Source: Larkinella sp.
GTDB lineage: Bacteria; Bacteroidota; Bacteroidia; Cytophagales; Spirosomataceae
NCBI RefSeq assembly: GCF_965227735.1
Contig: NZ_OZ245776.1
Span: 760,852-824,851 of the forward strand
DNA length: 64,000 nt
Direction of reading: 5' to 3'
A program made the translations under genes and the position numbers. The notes under the pieces are model-generated. The model searched no databases and had not been told where the DNA came from. It saw only the letters and a program-made list of their open reading frames with translations. Within the stretch, counting starts at the first letter, position 1. Each line of letters begins with the position of its first letter. Below, in pieces: positions 23,451 to 29,697 of the stretch.

Positions 23451-25493
23451 ATGTACAATAAGGAAGAACTCGATCTGAAACTCTTATCAGAATTGAAAGC
23501 GATTGCTGAATCATTCAGTATTCGTGACATCAGTAAATTCAACAAAAAGGAATTGGTTTATAAAATTTTAGACCAGCAATCCTTACTCCCCGACCCCGTT
23601 CCCGCTCCCACTGAAAACGGCAAAAGCGCGGAAGCCACCCCCGTGGTGGTCGCCGAAGCCCCGCGCCGTGGACGGCGTCCACGCCCGGAACCAACACCGG
23701 CAGCCGAGACGGCTCCTGCTGCGCAACCCGCTCCTGCTGACCTGGAAACGCCGGCTTCGGCTCCCGAACCCGTTCAGCCCGAAATGGCAACCCCCACGCC
23801 GGAAGCCCGAACTGAAGAACCGCGCGTATCGGTCGTACGGCCCAATCGCGACAATACGGCCCGAAACGGCCGACCTGCCGATGCTGCTGCAGGCACCCGC
23901 CCGCAAAACCGGCGTGGTCCGGAACAAACCGGCCCCATTCGCCCCGCCCGAAACGAAAATTCAGATTCTCACGATCCACGGCGCGTGCGTCAACGAATTC
24001 GCAAAGACGAAGAGGTGGGCGAAGATATTATTCCCGCAGCCCCTTCTGCGGAGAAATCCAATGAAAAAAAGGGACTTCCCAACCAACCCCAGCGCCCGGA
24101 ACAACTCCGCAACCGCAAAGGAGAACTGGAACAACCCGCACTGGATCTGTCGATTGAAACCGACACCGACGACTTTTTTACGGCACCCGCCGACGGCGAA
24201 CAGCCTGATGTAGCCGCTGTTAGCCCGGCCACGCCGGAAACCCCGGTTCAGGCCGATCAGCCCGAAGCAACCCAAACCCCGGCACAGCAACCCGAACGCC
24301 AGCAGCGTGACGTGGTGCGCCCGGATGAGTATACCAACCGCATTCGCCGGCAGTATAACCAGCACGTTCGGGAATTTGACGGGATTATTGAAAACGAAGG
24401 CGTTCTGGAAATTATGTCCGATGGTGGCTACGGCTTCCTGCGCTCGGCCGATTACAATTACCTGGCCAGTCCGGACGACATATATGTATCACCGTCACAA
24501 ATTAAACTCTTTGGTCTGAAAACCGGGGACACGGTACGCGGTCAGATCCGTCCACCCAAAGAAGGTGAAAAATATTTTGCCCTGCTTCGTGTTTCATCGG
24601 TCAATGGCAAAACGACCGAAGAAATCCGCGATCGGATTCCCTTTGAATACCTGACTCCGCTTTTTCCGGAAGAAAAACTGAACCTGAGCTACCGTTCCGA
24701 TCAGTATTCGACCCGGATTGTAGACCTCTTTGCGCCGATTGGAAAAGGGCAGCGGGGGATGATTGTGGCCCAGCCCAAAACCGGTAAAACCGTGTTGCTG
24801 AAAGACATCGCCAACGCCATCACCAAAAACCACCCGGAAGTTTATCTCATCATTCTGCTGATCGACGAACGCCCGGAAGAAGTGACGGACATGGCCCGGA
24901 GTGTGAACGCAGAAGTCATTTCGTCCACCTTTGATGAACAGGCCGAACGGCACGTAAAAGTGGCCTCGATGGTGCTGGAAAAGGCGAAACGGATGGTTGA
25001 GTGCGGTCACGATGTGGTTATTCTGCTCGATTCGATCACGCGTCTGGCGCGGGCCTACAACACGGTAGTGCCTTCGTCCGGGAAGATTCTGTCGGGTGGT
25101 GTCGATGCCAACGCCCTCCACAAGCCGAAACGTTTTTTCGGAGCCGCCCGAAACGTTGAATTTGGCGGCTCGTTAACGATCATTGCCACGGCGCTGATTG
25201 ATACGGGTTCGAAAATGGACGAAGTAATCTTCGAGGAATTCAAAGGGACCGGTAACATGGAACTCCAACTCGACCGGAAACTGTCCAACAAGCGCGTTTA
25301 TCCGGCGGTCGACGTTCTGTCGTCCGGCACGCGTCGGGAAGACCTGCTGCTCGACAAAGAAACCCTGCAACGCATCTGGATTCTTCGCAAGCACATGGCC
25401 GATATGAACGCGATGGAGTCGATGGACTTCCTGCTCGACCGCATGCGCGGAACCCGCAACAACGAAGAATTTCTGGTGTCGATGAACCGCTAA
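23451..25493 (+). CDS. rho: Transcription termination factor Rho with long N-terminal disordered insertion
   Basis: GYGFLR RNP1, [39 protein letters not shown]. Confidence 0.98.
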
Positions 25494-25523: not shown

Positions 25524-25566
25524 AAAAACCGTGTTGCACCCCAAAAGGGTCGCGACACGGTTTTTT
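25524..25566 (+). terminator. Intrinsic terminator after rho
   Basis: AAAAACCGTGTTGC-ACCC...GGGT-CGCGACACGGTTTTTT hairpin with T tail. Confidence 0.85.
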
Positions 25567-25708
25567 AGTTACCAGACAATCCCGTCGCATCTGAGAAAGA
25601 CACAGCCGCGCAAGGCGTTTCTCAAAAAATAATTTCGGGTTTGCATGACTTCACGGCCCTTTTCGAGTCTCAATGAAGGAATATAAACTTCAAACCCGTC
25701 GTTATTTC

Positions 25709-26641
25709 ATGTTCACCAATAAAACACCCTGGGTTGTGCTGCTCCTTGTCTGGATGGGCGGTTCAACCTATTGGCACGTCTGCCACATCAAACAATTGTG
25801 CGCCGACGACGATACTTCCCAGTCAGCCCTTTCTGCGGATTCAAAAACAACTCCTGCCTTCACAGTCCCCGGTTTGCAGTTTGCGGATGGCACAACCGCA
25901 TCCTTCCAGTCAGCGGGTCATCTGGCGTTTGCCAAATCCGGGGCCGAAGTCAACCCGGCGGGCGTTCAGTCTTTGCTGGATTCCCTGGCACTCTATATGA
26001 AAGCAAACCCCGGCAAACGCGTACAACTGACGGGTTTCTATGATCCAAACGAGCAAAACCCTTCGACTGATGCCAATCTGGGACTAGCGCGTGCCAACAG
26101 CGTCCGCACTTATCTCAAAACGCTGGGTGTAGCGGATACGCTCTTCACGATACAAGGCGAATCGACCACCGATCTGGCCTTTACGCCAGCCGGTGATTCG
26201 CTCTACGGCGGGATTCGGTTTGCATTTCTGGAAGAAGTACTGGTGAAAGCCCCCAAACCGGCCGAAGAAAAATTAGCTGACAGTCAGAAATTTGCATCCA
26301 TTTTTGAGCCCATGGACTTGTACTTCAACACCGGCAGAATCGATTACATCAAAACCGCCGGTACCCGTGAATTTCTGGAAAAGACCCGGACCTATCTCAA
26401 AGAGCATCCTGATCAGAAACTGGTCATTACCGGCCATACCGATGATGTCGGCCCCGATGCACTCAATCTGGCACTGTCTAAAAAGCGGGCCACCGCCGTA
26501 AAAATGCAATTGGTGAACGAGGGTATTTCGGCCCGGCAGGTGGAAGTCCAGGGCAAAGGCGAAATCCAGCCCGTCGGCACCAATAAAACCGAAGACGGTC
26601 GCCGGGCCAACCGCCGGGCCTCGATCGTTGTGAAACCCTAA
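25709..26641 (+). CDS. Membrane-anchored OmpA-family protein with two OmpA_C-like domains
   Basis: N-terminal TM PWVVLLLVWMGGSTYWHVC; degenerate domain (LTGFYD...LGLARA) and canonical domain (ITGHTDDVG...LSKKRA...NRRA). Start moved to ATG 25709. Confidence 0.88.
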   Translation: MFTNKTPWVVLLLVWMGGSTYWHVCHIKQLCADDDTSQSALSADSKTTPAFTVPGLQFADGTTASFQSAGHLAFAKSGAEVNPAGVQSLLDSLALYMKANPGKRVQLTGFYDPNEQNPSTDANLGLARANSVRTYLKTLGVADTLFTIQGESTTDLAFTPAGDSLYGGIRFAFLEEVLVKAPKPAEEKLADSQKFASIFEPMDLYFNTGRIDYIKTAGTREFLEKTRTYLKEHPDQKLVITGHTDDVGPDALNLALSKKRATAVKMQLVNEGISARQVEVQGKGEIQPVGTNKTEDGRRANRRASIVVKP

Positions 26642-26672
26642 TGTCCTCCGCTACCAAAAACGCATTACCACT

Positions 26673-27158
26673 ATGTTTGAAATGAATCCCCATCAGTTGC
26701 CCGACGCCGTTCTGCAACACTGGATTATGTTACTAGTTTGTGGAACGCTAGGTTTCATCATCGGTTACATCGGTCGAAAAGTTACGATTCGCCGGCTCGA
26801 AAGTCAGATCAATGCCACCGAAAGCCAGGTGGAAGAGTGCCTGAAATCCAGTCAGGCCCAGCAGGAAGACATCGTGCTCCAACGCATTTCTTCCCGGGCA
26901 AATGAACTGAATTTCACACGAATCGGCCATTCCTCACTCGCTAAAGCCGATGACTTGAAGGAAATTAACGGAATTGGCCCGTTTTTCGAGAAAAAACTGC
27001 ACAGCCTCCGAATCTATACGTTTCAGCAGTTGGCCAATTGTACGACGGAAGACACCAACCAGATTGCCAACATCATTGAGTTCTTCCCCGACCGCATCGA
27101 ACGGGAAGACTGGATCGGCCAGGCAAAAAAGTTACACCGCAAAAAATATGGCGTTTAG
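26673..27158 (+). CDS. Single-pass membrane protein with coiled coil and C-terminal helix-hairpin-helix (COG3743-like) domain
   Basis: TM HWIMLLVCGTLGFIIGYIG; DDLKEINGIGPFFEKKL...FQQLA...RIEREDWIGQAK. Confidence 0.85.
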   Translation: MFEMNPHQLPDAVLQHWIMLLVCGTLGFIIGYIGRKVTIRRLESQINATESQVEECLKSSQAQQEDIVLQRISSRANELNFTRIGHSSLAKADDLKEINGIGPFFEKKLHSLRIYTFQQLANCTTEDTNQIANIIEFFPDRIEREDWIGQAKKLHRKKYGV

Positions 27159-27193
27159 AATTCAACTGTTCGACCTAAAAAAGCACAGACACT

Positions 27194-27781
27194 ATGTTCA
27201 ATTTAGATCCGTTTAGCCGGGGCGTTGCCATTACTGAAATTCTGATCTTGCTGGCCTTTGCCGCCCTTGTGGGTTATTTCCTCGCCCGGTTGATCACCAA
27301 CAACCGCATCAGCGAATTAAAAGCTGCTTTGGCCGATCAGGAAGCGGCCCTGGATGACTGCCACCGCAAGCGGAAAGCGACGGTAGCGATGGCTTCCTCT
27401 CCAGCAACAAAAACCGTCGAGTATACAAGCACCCGAACAGTTGCACCGACAAGCAATGGTAACATAGCAACAGAAAGCGATGAAGAAACCGTTTTCCGTA
27501 AAATTGCGTCACGTGCTTCGGAATTGAATTTTAGCCGCATTGGCTACGCCACCCTGAACGATGCAGATGATCTGAAAGAGATTGTGGGCGTCGGTCCGTT
27601 TTTTGAACGCAAACTGCACACACTCGGCATTTTCAGCTTCCGGCAACTGGCCAATTTTACGACCGAGGATGTAGAAAAGGTGAGTGATATTATTGAATTT
27701 TTCCCCGACCGCATCGAGCGCGAAGACTGGGTTGGACAGGCTAAACAACTGTATAAGAATAAATACGGCCGGGAGGTTTAA
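27194..27781 (+). CDS. Paralogous single-pass membrane protein with HhH (COG3743-like) domain
   Basis: TM EILILLAFAALVGYFLARLI; DDLKEIVGVGPFFERKL...FRQLA...RIEREDWVGQAK. Confidence 0.85.
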   Translation: MFNLDPFSRGVAITEILILLAFAALVGYFLARLITNNRISELKAALADQEAALDDCHRKRKATVAMASSPATKTVEYTSTRTVAPTSNGNIATESDEETVFRKIASRASELNFSRIGYATLNDADDLKEIVGVGPFFERKLHTLGIFSFRQLANFTTEDVEKVSDIIEFFPDRIEREDWVGQAKQLYKNKYGREV

Positions 27782-27784
27782 AGA

Positions 27785-27862
27785 CGGTATTCGGTATTCG
27801 GTGGCTGACGCATTCAGATGCACGCGTCAGCCACCGAATACCGTATACTGAAAACCGAATAC
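27785..27862. repeat. Heptamer-armed hairpin between convergent genes (probable bidirectional terminator/REP-like)
   Basis: Perfect 20-bp arms CGGTATTCGGTGGCTGACGC (27792-27811) and GCGTCAGCCACCGAATACCG (27824-27843), with extra CGGTATT/AATACCG-type units. Confidence 0.85.
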
Positions 27863-27867
27863 CCATT

Positions 27868-29697
27868 TTACAACGTCTCGACCGTGCGACGGATGAACGC
27901 GGTCAGGTCGGAGCCGGAAAGCATGCCCTGTGCCAGTTTGGCCAGATCCAGGCTTTGTTTAACCAGTACCTTTTGCTCGTCTGCATTATCCAATTTCAAA
28001 ATGCGGTCGGCCAGCGGGTGGTTGGCGTTCACGGCAATGTTGTAACTATCCGGCATGGCACCGAACATACCCCGTTCGCCACTCAGCGCGGACATATCTT
28101 TCATCCGGCGGAAAAACTCGGGCAGGGTGATGATCACCGGCAGTTCGTCGGTTGGCATGGCTTCGACGGAAACCGTACCGGTTTTGCTCTCCAGCGCTTC
28201 CTCAAACAACGTTTTCAGTTTCGTTTTGTCGTCTTCCGACAGCACACTTTCGTTGTTGATCCCCTTGTCGATCAGCTTGTCAAACGTATCGGCATCGACG
28301 CGTTTCAGGCTGGTTTTTTCGAGCTTGTATTCCAGTTGATTGATGAAATGGCTGTCGATCACCGTATCGAACAGCAAGACTTCATACCCGCGTTTCCGGG
28401 CCGATGCGATGAAACCGTCCTGTTTTTGCAGATCGTTCGTATAAAGCCAGACAACCGAACCGTTTTTATCAGTCTGATTTTCCTTAACGGCTGCGCTAAA
28501 CTCCTCAAAGGTGAAGTATTTCCCGTCTACGTTTTTCACCAGACAGAAGTCCTTGGCTTTTTCGTAGAATTTCTCATCGCTGATGATACCGTATTTGACA
28601 AACAGGCCGATGTCATCGAATTTCTGTTCAAAACCGGCGCGGTCGTTGCGGAACAGTTCTCCCAGTTTATCAGCAACTTTCCGCGTGATGTACCCGTTGA
28701 TTTTCTTGACATTGCTGTCGGCTTGCAGAAAACTCCGCGACACGTTGAGCGGAATATCCGGCGAGTCGATTACGCCGTGCAGCATCATCAGAAAGTCCGG
28801 CACGATGTCTTTGACCTCGTCAGTGATGAACACCTGGCGACTGTACAATTGAATTTTTTCACGCCGGATCTGAAAATCATTTTTAACCCTTGGGAAATAC
28901 AGCACGCCCGTCAGGTTAAACGGATAATCGACATTCAGGTGAATCCAGAACAGGGGCTCTTCCGACATCGGATAGAGTTCCTTGTAAAAATTCAGGTAAT
29001 CTTCGTCGGTCAGATCAGAAGGCGACTTGGTCCAGATCGGGGCAGTATTGTTGATGGTTGCGCCATCGAATTCGATGTCGATGGGCAGAAACCGGCCGTA
29101 TTTATCCAGAATTGACCGAAGGCGGTCTTTATCCAGAAACTCTTCCGAATCAGCGGCAATGTGCAGAATGATGTCCGTTCCGTGTTCCGCGCGCTCGGCT
29201 TCCGTAATTTCAAACTCAGTCGAACCATCGCAAATCCAGCGGGCGGCTTCCGAGCCTTCCCGATACGATTTGGTGATAATTTCGACGTGATCAGAAACCA
29301 TGAAGGCCGAATAGAAGCCCAGGCCAAAATGACCGATGATCGCGCCTTTTTCGTCCAGCTTGTCTTTGTATTTTTCCAGAAATTCAGAGGCACCGGAAAA
29401 CGCAATCTGGTTGATGTACTTCTTGATTTCTTCCGCCGTCATCCCAATGCCCCGGTCGCTGACGGTGATGGTTTTGGCTTCTTCGTCGAGGGTGACGGTC
29501 ACTTTCAAATCGCCCAGCTCACCGTTAAATTCGCCGAATCCGGCCAGTTTTTTCAGTTTCTGGGATGCATCGACGGCATTAGAAACCAATTCCCGTAAAA
29601 AGATCTCGTGATCGGAATAGAGAAATTTTTTGATGATCGGAAAGATGTTTTCCGTATGAATCGAAATTTGACCTTTTTCCTGAATGGTCGAGCTCAT
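27868..29697 (-). CDS. htpG: Chaperone HtpG (Hsp90)
   Basis: FLYSDHEIFLRELVSNAVDA, IIGHFGLGFYSAFMV, IPLNVSRSFLQ. Confidence 0.98.
   Translation of the reverse strand: MSSTIQEKGQISIHTENIFPIIKKFLYSDHEIFLRELVSNAVDASQKLKKLAGFGEFNGELGDLKVTVTLDEEAKTITVSDRGIGMTAEEIKKYINQIAFSGASEFLEKYKDKLDEKGAIIGHFGLGFYSAFMVSDHVEIITKSYREGSEAARWICDGSTEFEITEAERAEHGTDIILHIAADSEEFLDKDRLRSILDKYGRFLPIDIEFDGATINNTAPIWTKSPSDLTDEDYLNFYKELYPMSEEPLFWIHLNVDYPFNLTGVLYFPRVKNDFQIRREKIQLYSRQVFITDEVKDIVPDFLMMLHGVIDSPDIPLNVSRSFLQADSNVKKINGYITRKVADKLGELFRNDRAGFEQKFDDIGLFVKYGIISDEKFYEKAKDFCLVKNVDGKYFTFEEFSAAVKENQTDKNGSVVWLYTNDLQKQDGFIASARKRGYEVLLFDTVIDSHFINQLEYKLEKTSLKRVDADTFDKLIDKGINNESVLSEDDKTKLKTLFEEALESKTGTVSVEAMPTDELPVIITLPEFFRRMKDMSALSGERGMFGAMPDSYNIAVNANHPLADRILKLDNADEQKVLVKQSLDLAKLAQGMLSGSDLTAFIRRTVETL

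Follow-up and report, generated by a model that had tools for sequence, protein, structure and literature searches.

A conserved envelope gene pair, present as a trio in Larkinella, encodes a membrane-anchored OmpA-family protein beside membrane-anchored helix-hairpin-helix proteins

What would a bacterium do with an OmpA-family envelope protein encoded directly beside two membrane-anchored proteins that end in helix-hairpin-helix (HhH) domains? The question is raised by three small genes of Larkinella sp. (Bacteroidota, Spirosomataceae; RefSeq assembly GCF_965227735.1), which lie in a 64,000-nucleotide stretch of contig NZ_OZ245776.1 (positions 760,852 to 824,851 of the forward strand). We call this whole stretch the window and number all positions within it. 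Gene 1 (25709-26641, + strand, 310 aa) encodes a putative N-in single-pass anchor that would serve as the peptidoglycan anchor subunit. Gene 2 (26673-27158, + strand, 161 aa) encodes a protein with a transmembrane (TM) helix, a coiled coil and a C-terminal HhH domain of the H3TH type (the head), and gene 3 (27194-27781, + strand, 195 aa) encodes a protein of the same plan with a linker between coil and head. The open reading frame (ORF) positions agreed with an initial annotation of this DNA, which had described three co-directional genes with gaps of 31 nt (gene 1/gene 2) and 35 nt (gene 2/gene 3). The comparison with other genomes showed that the trio is the Spirosomataceae three-gene form of a widespread pair, in which a TM-anchored OmpA_C gene is followed by a TM/coiled-coil/H3TH gene.

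The module that the initial annotation had proposed recurs well outside this genome. The trio was adjacent in 11 of the 12 other genomes of the genus and in nine other genera of the family, an arrangement that is therefore far beyond chance. Full-length orthologs of gene 1 adjoined the twin genes in every related genome where they were found (21/21). Among the relatives surveyed, genomes that had no gene 1 ortholog also had no twin genes, and vice versa. Within the family, the trio is vertically inherited in fixed synteny, and the wider pair was found in several phyla. We also noted two departures from the standard arrangement. In one genus the gene-3-type paralog was a pseudogene, a 60-aa stub with two TAA stops (L021:4955-5137; G015:C32:4928-5125), beside an intact gene 1 and an intact gene-2-type copy. 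One relative carried a second, diverged OmpA-plus-H3TH locus beside the syntenic trio (G018:C1:3779668-3780773).

Using a head profile, we screened 301 Bacteroidota genomes and fetched 60 places for a check of the gene neighbourhood. An OmpA_C gene lay directly upstream, on the same strand and with a gap of 4-129 nt, of 17 of the 25 H3TH genes with a single-pass N-terminal TM helix, but upstream of none of the 36 H3TH genes without such an anchor (Fisher p = 2e-9). Among 16 loci no other neighbour of the pair was conserved, and just the H3TH gene was kept beside the OmpA gene. Four distant TM/coiled-coil/H3TH proteins, from a Rhodothermales-like lineage (one), unassigned metagenome contigs (two) and another Cytophagales family (one), all had an OmpA_C gene directly upstream (4/4), and two of these upstream genes carried a BON domain. 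A scan of GTDB species genomes showed further pairs in Saprospiraceae, Flammeovirgaceae, Rhodothermia, Alpha-, Gamma- and Deltaproteobacterial bins, Inquilinus limosus, Caulobacterales and Actinomycetota. Flavobacteriaceae-type pairs were also among the surveyed loci. The OmpA partners of other lineages also included proteins with BON (L023, L027, L061, L073 and L091). The order and strand of the pair were fixed across phyla, and in some lineages a single gene carried two tandem heads where Larkinella has twin genes.

BLAST alignments of gene 1 with the partners from Saprospiraceae and other Bacteroidota loci ran from end to end with 24-32% identity, so that the combination of TM helix, cysteine pair and double OmpA domain marks a Bacteroidota-wide partner family. 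A word-index search with residues 1-200 of gene 1 found only Spirosomataceae, which reflects the sensitivity limit of that search, as BLAST against the partner proteins found other classes. The components of the pair are of known kinds, and their combination is a conserved module that we found described in no paper when we searched the literature on the head family together with OmpA. One two-headed TM-H3TH gene was preceded by a gene for a 134-aa protein that had a gene-1-like anchor (WLLPGISCW) and no match to our purpose-built OmpA profile (L079:5512-5916).

The architecture of gene 1 was as the initial annotation had read it, with one TM helix ending in WHVCHIKQLC followed by a degenerate and a canonical OmpA_C domain, and this was supported by Pfam, by a hidden Markov model (HMM) and by an AlphaFold2 (AF2) model. 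Pfam OmpA (PF00691) scored 101 bits against a cut-off of 27.2, in two stretches, and our purpose-built OmpA HMM matched residues 72-151 (E 9e-13) and 196-309 (E 6e-47). The AF2 model (predicted local distance difference test score, pLDDT, 78.6) showed a helix at residues 6-30, disorder to about residue 53 and then two beta-alpha-beta-alpha-beta-beta domains. The best Foldseek matches of this model were the C-domains of OprF, OmpA and Pal (E 1e-11, target-normalised TM-score 0.7-0.8), and the sequence relatives in the PDB were OmpA, OprF, Pal, YiaD and Rv0899 (2l26, 2lbt, 2lca).

The first of the two domains (residues 56-173, 25874-26227, + strand), supported by the AF2 fold order and the shorter HMM match, is degenerate and retains just the Arg (R128) of the Asp/Arg pair. 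Orthologs of 189-193 aa had no such domain (P0128, P0129, L016). The canonical OmpA_C domain (residues 196-309, 26294-26635, + strand), on which Pfam, HMM, Foldseek and PDB relatives agreed, carries the TD...LSxxRA motif with D245 and R260, and D245, N253, L256, S257 and R260 were invariant in 27 homologs. We take D245 and R260 to be the Asp and Arg expected to contact peptidoglycan through its diaminopimelate (DAP) moiety, presumably as in PDB 3td5.

The membrane-proximal part of gene 1 was equally conserved in these homologs, with W8, L12, W15, S19, W22, H23, C25, L30 and C31 invariant. The TM helix (residues 6-24) runs into a W22-H23-x-C25-x5-C31 motif (together 25724-25801, + strand), which is an invariant WHVCxIKxLC and is predicted to lie on the periplasmic side. 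K5 precedes the helix, and therefore the N terminus is predicted to be inside and the OmpA domains periplasmic. The helix itself (TPWVVLLLVWMGGSTYWHV) contains no Asp or Glu, and no acidic residue was conserved there among the 27 homologs. The Pfam scan of gene 1 showed no BON domain. Two other identities were considered for this region and rejected. On inspection, the Cys motifs formed no consistent lipobox across the family, as a lipoprotein would have, and a likeness of the TM region to LapA_dom was sub-threshold (E 0.004-0.07) and was taken as generic TM similarity. The start of gene 1 was placed at 25709 rather than at the in-frame upstream ATG at 25673, because the alignment of homologs conserves the MFTNKT start.

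Genes 2 and 3 are paralogs with 40% identity overall (E 2e-53) and about 70% over the C-terminal 70 residues, and gene 3 had homologs of 93% identity in Larkinella. Each consists of a TM helix, a coiled coil that ends in a conserved Cys and a similar HhH head, which confirmed the first description of the pair. In gene 2 an acidic 16-aa tail precedes the TM helix (17-34, with G27xxxG31), the coiled coil (36-60) and the head (63-160), and the TM helix has no Lys or Arg ahead of it and RK..RR behind it. Gene 3 has a short acidic tail, a TM helix (11-31, with E15 and G27xxxA31) that likewise has basic residues only behind it, a coiled coil to residue 67, a disordered linker (69-92) and a head (93-191). 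The AF2 model of gene 3 (pLDDT 82.1) accordingly showed one continuous helix over residues 9-67, low confidence over 69-92 and a helical domain over 93-191.

The two stalks are in equal register. Both coiled coils comprise three heptads, with a positions at 39, 46 and 53 and d positions at 42, 49 and 56, and Cys56, which is near-invariant among the homologs, is at a d position in both (26838-26840 in gene 2, 27359-27361 in gene 3). The motifs EECLK and DDCHR thus place the Cys at the same residue. The invariant TM Gly (G27) and Cys56 are separated by 29 residues in both paralogs, with no indels among the Spirosomataceae sequences. A heterodimer of genes 2 and 3 is plausible, because the Gly-Cys56 spacing and the heptad register are the same in both, and the GxxxG/A motifs would fit TM helix-helix packing.

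The head opens with a classical HhH hairpin (DDLKxIxGIGP) and continues through three or four helices to a terminal W..Q, as in domains of the COG3743/DUF4332/HHH_5 type. Residues D126, K128, I130, G132, G134, P135, W179 and Q182 were invariant in 40 sequences. Pfam detected the heads of genes 2 and 3 weakly (HHH_5 and Cdd1, both sub-threshold, E 0.02-0.06), NCBIfam gave partial matches to PhaH and to the C-termini of alphaproteobacterial NuoE, L21 and S2 models (E 1e-11 to 4e-22), and gene 3 matched the PDB chains 9wqv_a and 8yy9_O. Homologs are named in the sources as "predicted flap endonuclease-1-like 5' DNA nuclease", as DUF4332 or as HhH-domain protein. The first of these names is the COG3743 label. 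It is not to be read literally, since the Pfam scan of both proteins and the AF2 model of gene 3 showed just TM helix, coil and head, and no PIN/FEN nuclease catalytic domain.

On which side of the membrane do the heads lie? We counted Lys and Arg in the 15 residues before and after the TM helix of the 39 H3TH partners whose TM helix was located and of 32 OmpA partners. The H3TH partners had no Lys or Arg before the helix in 36 of 39 cases and one to nine after it in all 39. The OmpA partners mostly had Lys or Arg before the helix, although the pattern was less uniform and none were counted in about 10 of the 32. From these charges, opposite membrane orientations are predicted for the two partners, and genes 2 and 3 are most likely N-out/C-in. 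Their heads would most likely be cytoplasmic because of the charge pattern, the fusions of the same head to cytoplasmic proteins (see below) and the position of a disulfide in protein-O.

Protein-O (also Urf1 or protein-3h; 8yy9_O, 9wqv_a) is encoded in the alphaproteobacterial nuo operon and combines a membrane anchor, a flexible linker and the same head (E 1e-11 to 1e-13). Its anchor is a U-shaped hairpin of two or three helices in RC-LH1 and, unlike the trio, it has neither an OmpA partner nor a coiled coil. In the structures 8yy9 and 9wqv a disulfide links the ends of this TM hairpin on the cytoplasmic side, and the C-terminal head is not resolved (PMC12079452, PMC13066640); the head would therefore lie on that side as well.

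A Cys pair follows the TM helix in nearly all Bacteroidota OmpA partners, as Cx5C in Larkinella and as CC, CCxCC, CxxC or [YW][YW]VCxIKxxC in other Bacteroidota, and is absent from the proteobacterial partners. The coil-end motif [DE]LxxC[RKN] was found in about 18 of 35 partner proteins, one of them actinobacterial. The placement of a Cys at position d points to a disulfide between the chains or to a metal bridge, and this would be unusual for a cytoplasmic coil.

The two paralogs have evolved differently at their two ends. A tree of the first 60 residues separated the gene-2-type from the gene-3-type sequences with a support of 100/100, so the duplication of the paralogs is old. However, the first split in the tree of the heads was by lineage, also with 100/100, and both paralogs were present in each clade. 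The head subtype "FFPxRIER" occurred in both paralogs of Larkinella and two other genera, and the subtype "GPRFQMHDP" in both paralogs of the remaining genera. Because the head tree groups by lineage, unlike the N-terminal tree, both heads were replaced or converted together. Such a concerted exchange is expected if the two heads must match.

What could the heads bind? PhaH of Caulobacter crescentus is the only characterised relative of the head. In the summary of a 2025 review (PMC13052382, citing Salinas et al. 2023, doi 10.1111/mmi.15124), PhaH attaches to polyhydroxybutyrate (PHB) granules through its N-terminal part, and its C-terminal HhH domain is reported as a non-specific DNA binder that spreads the PHB granules along the nucleoid. 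The heads of genes 2 and 3 matched the NCBIfam PhaH model (NF045508) with E 1e-11 and 3e-13, over model positions of about 93-232 of 234. Only these C-terminal model positions matched, and the full-length scores of 42 and 50 bits were far under the 250-bit cut-off of the equivalog, so genes 2 and 3 are not PhaH. PhaH and the twin proteins have the same C-terminal H3TH head and may share a logic, in which an N-terminal part sits on a cell structure and a head reported on DNA tethers that structure to the nucleoid. However, the N-terminal part of PhaH is soluble and binds granules, whereas genes 2 and 3 instead have a TM helix and a coiled coil together with a putative peptidoglycan-binding partner.

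Homology to the PhaH head is our sole reason for thinking that the heads of genes 2 and 3 may bind nucleic acid. The head family is very large and counts 19,015 cluster representatives at E <= 1e-3. Many other fusions have Lys-rich tracts beside their heads. The size of the family, these tracts and the tandem arrangement of heads (up to 26) fit a polymeric polyanion as ligand.

We tentatively favour an inner-membrane complex that is anchored to peptidoglycan and uses a pair of cytoplasmic heads to keep nucleic acid, probably the nucleoid, at the envelope. Gene 1 would be inserted N-in, with its Cys-pair collar, the degenerate OmpA-like domain and the canonical OmpA_C domain in the periplasm, and the complex would be fixed to the sacculus because the canonical domain is proposed to bind peptidoglycan. 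Genes 2 and 3 would be inserted N-out/C-in, and their GxxxG/A TM helices would probably pack together and with the helix of gene 1. In the cytoplasm the two stalks would pair in parallel and in register as a short heterodimeric coiled coil, which would end at the two Cys56 and present two matched H3TH heads a few nanometres beneath the membrane. By homology with PhaH, the likeliest ligand of the paired heads would be a nucleic-acid polymer, held irrespective of its sequence and most likely chromosomal DNA, and the module would act as a passive wall-membrane-nucleoid tether. This retains much of the initial annotation, which had suggested an inner-membrane complex linking the cell wall to cytoplasmic nucleic acid, possibly as a heterodimer. 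The adjacency in 21/21 genomes and the recurrence of the pair across phyla argue for one assembly and the equal register makes the heterodimer plausible, while the nucleic-acid part depends on the homology of the heads to that of PhaH.

Several observations weigh against the tether. Conserved Cys residues at d positions are typically seen in coiled coils that are disulfide-locked and extracytoplasmic and fit a cytoplasmic stalk poorly, and the tether gives no explanation for the conserved cysteines of gene 1 and of the stalks. Neither head is basic, with an isoelectric point (pI) of 8.1 and a net charge of +1 for gene 2 and a pI of 4.9 and a net charge of -4 for gene 3; the mean net charge of 169 head domains was about -1. 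Neither protein contains a Lys-rich tract. The same head is fused to the ribosomal protein L17 in this genome and elsewhere to L27, L20, S1, S2, S16, a NuoE-type 2Fe-2S subunit, an NrfD-type membrane subunit and a glycogen/starch-binding module, and a need for DNA binding is not obvious in the ribosomal and respiratory proteins. A Foldseek search of the whole gene 3 model, which is dominated by the long helix, against the PDB showed no significant neighbour (best match the Pol iota thumb, E 0.7). In two structure papers from 2025-26 the authors describe this C-terminal domain as being of unknown function (PMC12079452, PMC13066640). Finally, in one congener (G011) rho and htpG, which flank the trio in Larkinella sp., were adjacent at a distance of about 800 bp with the trio cleanly missing, so the trio is dispensable.

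The same architecture could instead serve another ligand, a reading that we regard as rather unlikely overall. The head would then be a docking tag for RNA, ribosomes, a polyanion such as polyphosphate or other heads, and the complex would be a fixed cortical docking site where, in place of DNA, assemblies with a head (ribosomes, NuoE, NrfD-type complexes and granule proteins) would bind. The head on L17 here and the ribosomal, NuoE, NrfD-type and glycogen/starch-binding fusions elsewhere are consistent with such a tag, as are the near-neutral or acidic heads and the presence of Urf1/protein-O, with the same head, in RC-LH1 complexes. The exchange of both paralog heads together would also be expected if the heads must match. 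However, PhaH, the sole tested homolog, is a DNA binder in the review's account, the Lys-rich tracts beside the heads in many fusions are classical nucleic-acid binders, and a TM-anchored partner is missing from many genomes in which a ribosomal protein carries the head.

A wider version of the docking idea seems unlikely to us. It would make the head a cell-wide address tag and the OmpA-anchored complex its fixed envelope receptor or co-tenant, possibly redox-gated through the Cys56 pair. Under it, the sacculus would be physically coupled to the nucleoid and, via the same ligand or through head pairing, to head-bearing ribosomes, respiratory complexes and granule proteins. If this were true, the heads would belong to a previously unrecognised spatial organisation system of the bacterial cytoplasm, present in several phyla.

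The three genes could also be co-transcribed and form no complex, gene 1 being an ordinary OmpA-family envelope protein and genes 2 and 3 independent membrane-tethered HhH proteins. OmpA_C genes are abundant (8-20 per genome), and 8 of the 25 single-TM H3TH genes had no OmpA neighbour. However, we consider this unlikely as well, since the adjacency was specific to the TM-anchored class (p = 2e-9), the order and strand did not vary across phyla, and a dedicated partner family with TM helix, Cys pair and double OmpA domain stood beside the twin genes in every related genome examined.

A sensor of envelope state or redox, in which the OmpA domains or the periplasmic Cys pair would report and a thiol/disulfide or metal switch at Cys56 would alter the heads, would give the cysteines a role. 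In gene 1 both C25 and C31 are invariant, in genes 2 and 3 Cys56 is nearly so, the coil-end motif recurs in about half of the partner proteins (~18/35), including one from Actinomycetota, and the post-TM Cys pair is present in nearly all Bacteroidota OmpA partners. Yet there was no recognisable output domain (kinase, cyclase or sigma/anti-sigma partner), the pair itself was the sole conserved feature of the neighbourhood, and the proteobacterial and most Saprospiraceae versions keep the pair without the cysteines, and we judge a sensor to be improbable.

MotB/PomB and ZorB are, like gene 1, single-pass N-in inner-membrane proteins in which a C-terminal OmpA_C domain fixes the complex to peptidoglycan. 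However, gene 1 differs in having no TM Asp, no plug region and no four-TM MotA/ZorA partner, and its own partners are single-pass with the opposite predicted orientation. The MotB models scored 39-53 bits on gene 1, and the MotB and MotD models taken together 39-58 bits, against cut-offs of 250-301. PADLOC matched only the OmpA_C part of ZorB (E 1e-10) and returned no defence family for genes 2 and 3 below E 0.005, and Pfam gave no match of the heads to HHH_3 (PF12836) at E <= 1. We rejected a MotB-like stator on the acid-free TM helix, on neighbours (rho and htpG) that are not of the MotA type and on the low equivalog scores; a Zorya or other defence system, as there was no ZorA partner or effector gene and the PADLOC match was limited to OmpA_C; and a ComEA-like receptor, as HHH_3 was missing and basic residues follow the TM helix in nearly all homologs. 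It is thus highly improbable that the module works as a motor of the stator or Zorya kind, or as a ComEA-like receptor that takes up DNA or senses incoming DNA, although the OmpA_C part matches ZorB and MotB models and ComEA is likewise a TM-anchored HhH protein: the TM helix of gene 1 has no acidic residue, no MotA/ExbB/ZorA-like gene was nearby or conserved with the pair, the MotB and MotD scores were far below their cut-offs, the heads have no HHH_3 match and a charge pattern that puts them in the cytoplasm, and the synteny is stable within the family, unlike that of mobile defence islands. The initial annotation had itself noted that a MotA-like channel gene was missing, which was correct, but its suggestion of DNA uptake or injected-DNA sensing finds no support in heads predicted to be cytoplasmic, in vertical inheritance in fixed synteny and in a sole PADLOC match to the generic OmpA_C part of ZorB.

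Returning to the wall-to-nucleoid tether that we favour, a functional precedent is given by the polar landmark proteins HubP/FimV/TspA, which bind peptidoglycan with a periplasmic domain, cross the membrane once and anchor chromosome-associated machinery with their cytoplasmic part. These proteins are not homologous to the trio and differ in being a single polypeptide with LysM in place of OmpA_C and acidic repeats in place of HhH, and in reaching DNA via ParA/ParB. ArfA (Rv0899/OmpATb) of Mycobacterium tuberculosis has an N-terminal TM anchor and a periplasmic/wall-facing OmpA_C domain, as gene 1 does, and is co-transcribed with small membrane proteins. Its architecture of TM helix, BON and OmpA is seen in partners of H3TH proteins in other phyla, whereas gene 1 has a second OmpA-like domain in place of BON, plus the Cys pair. 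The resemblance to arfABC remarked on in the initial annotation therefore holds for the BON-plus-OmpA partners of other phyla and fails for gene 1, which has no BON domain. To our knowledge ArfB and ArfC have no HhH head, and neither Pfam nor NCBIfam showed an ArfB or ArfC family in genes 2 and 3, a direct comparison with the ArfB and ArfC sequences not having been made.

Wall-anchored membrane proteins (MotB, ArfA, HubP) and HhH nucleoid tethering (PhaH) are each known separately, and we found no paper describing a dedicated wall-membrane-nucleic-acid link made from two or three small proteins. The ligand of the heads, once shown, would give a function to thousands of proteins and might also show by what means some bacteria keep cytoplasmic contents attached to their envelope. 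The Larkinella trio is favourable for such study, with short stalks, heads in separate genes, an in-register Cys pair and the trio-less congener as a natural knock-out. To the general pair the Larkinella version adds the twin genes with their in-register Cys, the concerted exchange of heads and this natural knock-out.

The boundaries of the module were clear in the window. The upstream neighbour is rho (23451-25493, + strand), whose intrinsic terminator hairpin (25524-25565, + strand; fold -26.6 kcal/mol, z = -6.8), followed by a U run, forms the 5' boundary. The 3' boundary is a hairpin between gene 3 and the convergent htpG (27868-29697, - strand), which lies at 27785-27850 without an assigned strand and folds with -47.7 kcal/mol (z = -9.1). 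The folding bore out the upstream terminator and strong downstream hairpin that had been annotated. The inner stem of the downstream hairpin is a perfect 20 bp and is made of GGTATTC heptamers, and GGTATTCGGT occurs in four exact copies at 27786-27863, in the hairpin region after gene 3. A link of the trio to rho or htpG was considered and rejected, as this synteny is limited to the family, apart from one Rhodothermales-like contig with rho about 3 kb away.

The rho gene of this genome encodes 680 aa, with a low-complexity insertion of about 300 aa, rich in Pro, Ala, Glu and Arg, near the N terminus, and the rho orthologs of relatives ranged from 484 to 726 aa. In the congener that has no trio, the gap between rho and htpG contained a 182-aa ORF on the opposite strand (L172:2226-2774, G011).

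Other proteins with the head were seen outside the pair. The L17 of this genome, encoded outside the window, has a C-terminal H3TH head after an Arg/Lys-rich tract and matched Pfam Ribosomal_L17, HHH_5 and DUF4332 (L059:4450-5217; G000:C1:3412592-3412795). Giant proteins of 2,280-3,115 aa carried 20-26 tandem H3TH heads (P0131, P0132, P0133). An NrfD-type (polysulfide-reductase-like) subunit of 575-616 aa that ends in an H3TH head, a second respiratory fusion besides NuoE, was found in one Bacteroidota family and in Flavobacteriaceae/Cellulophaga bins (L049:2911-4761, L057, L058, L062, L068, L083, L156, L157, L165 and L171).

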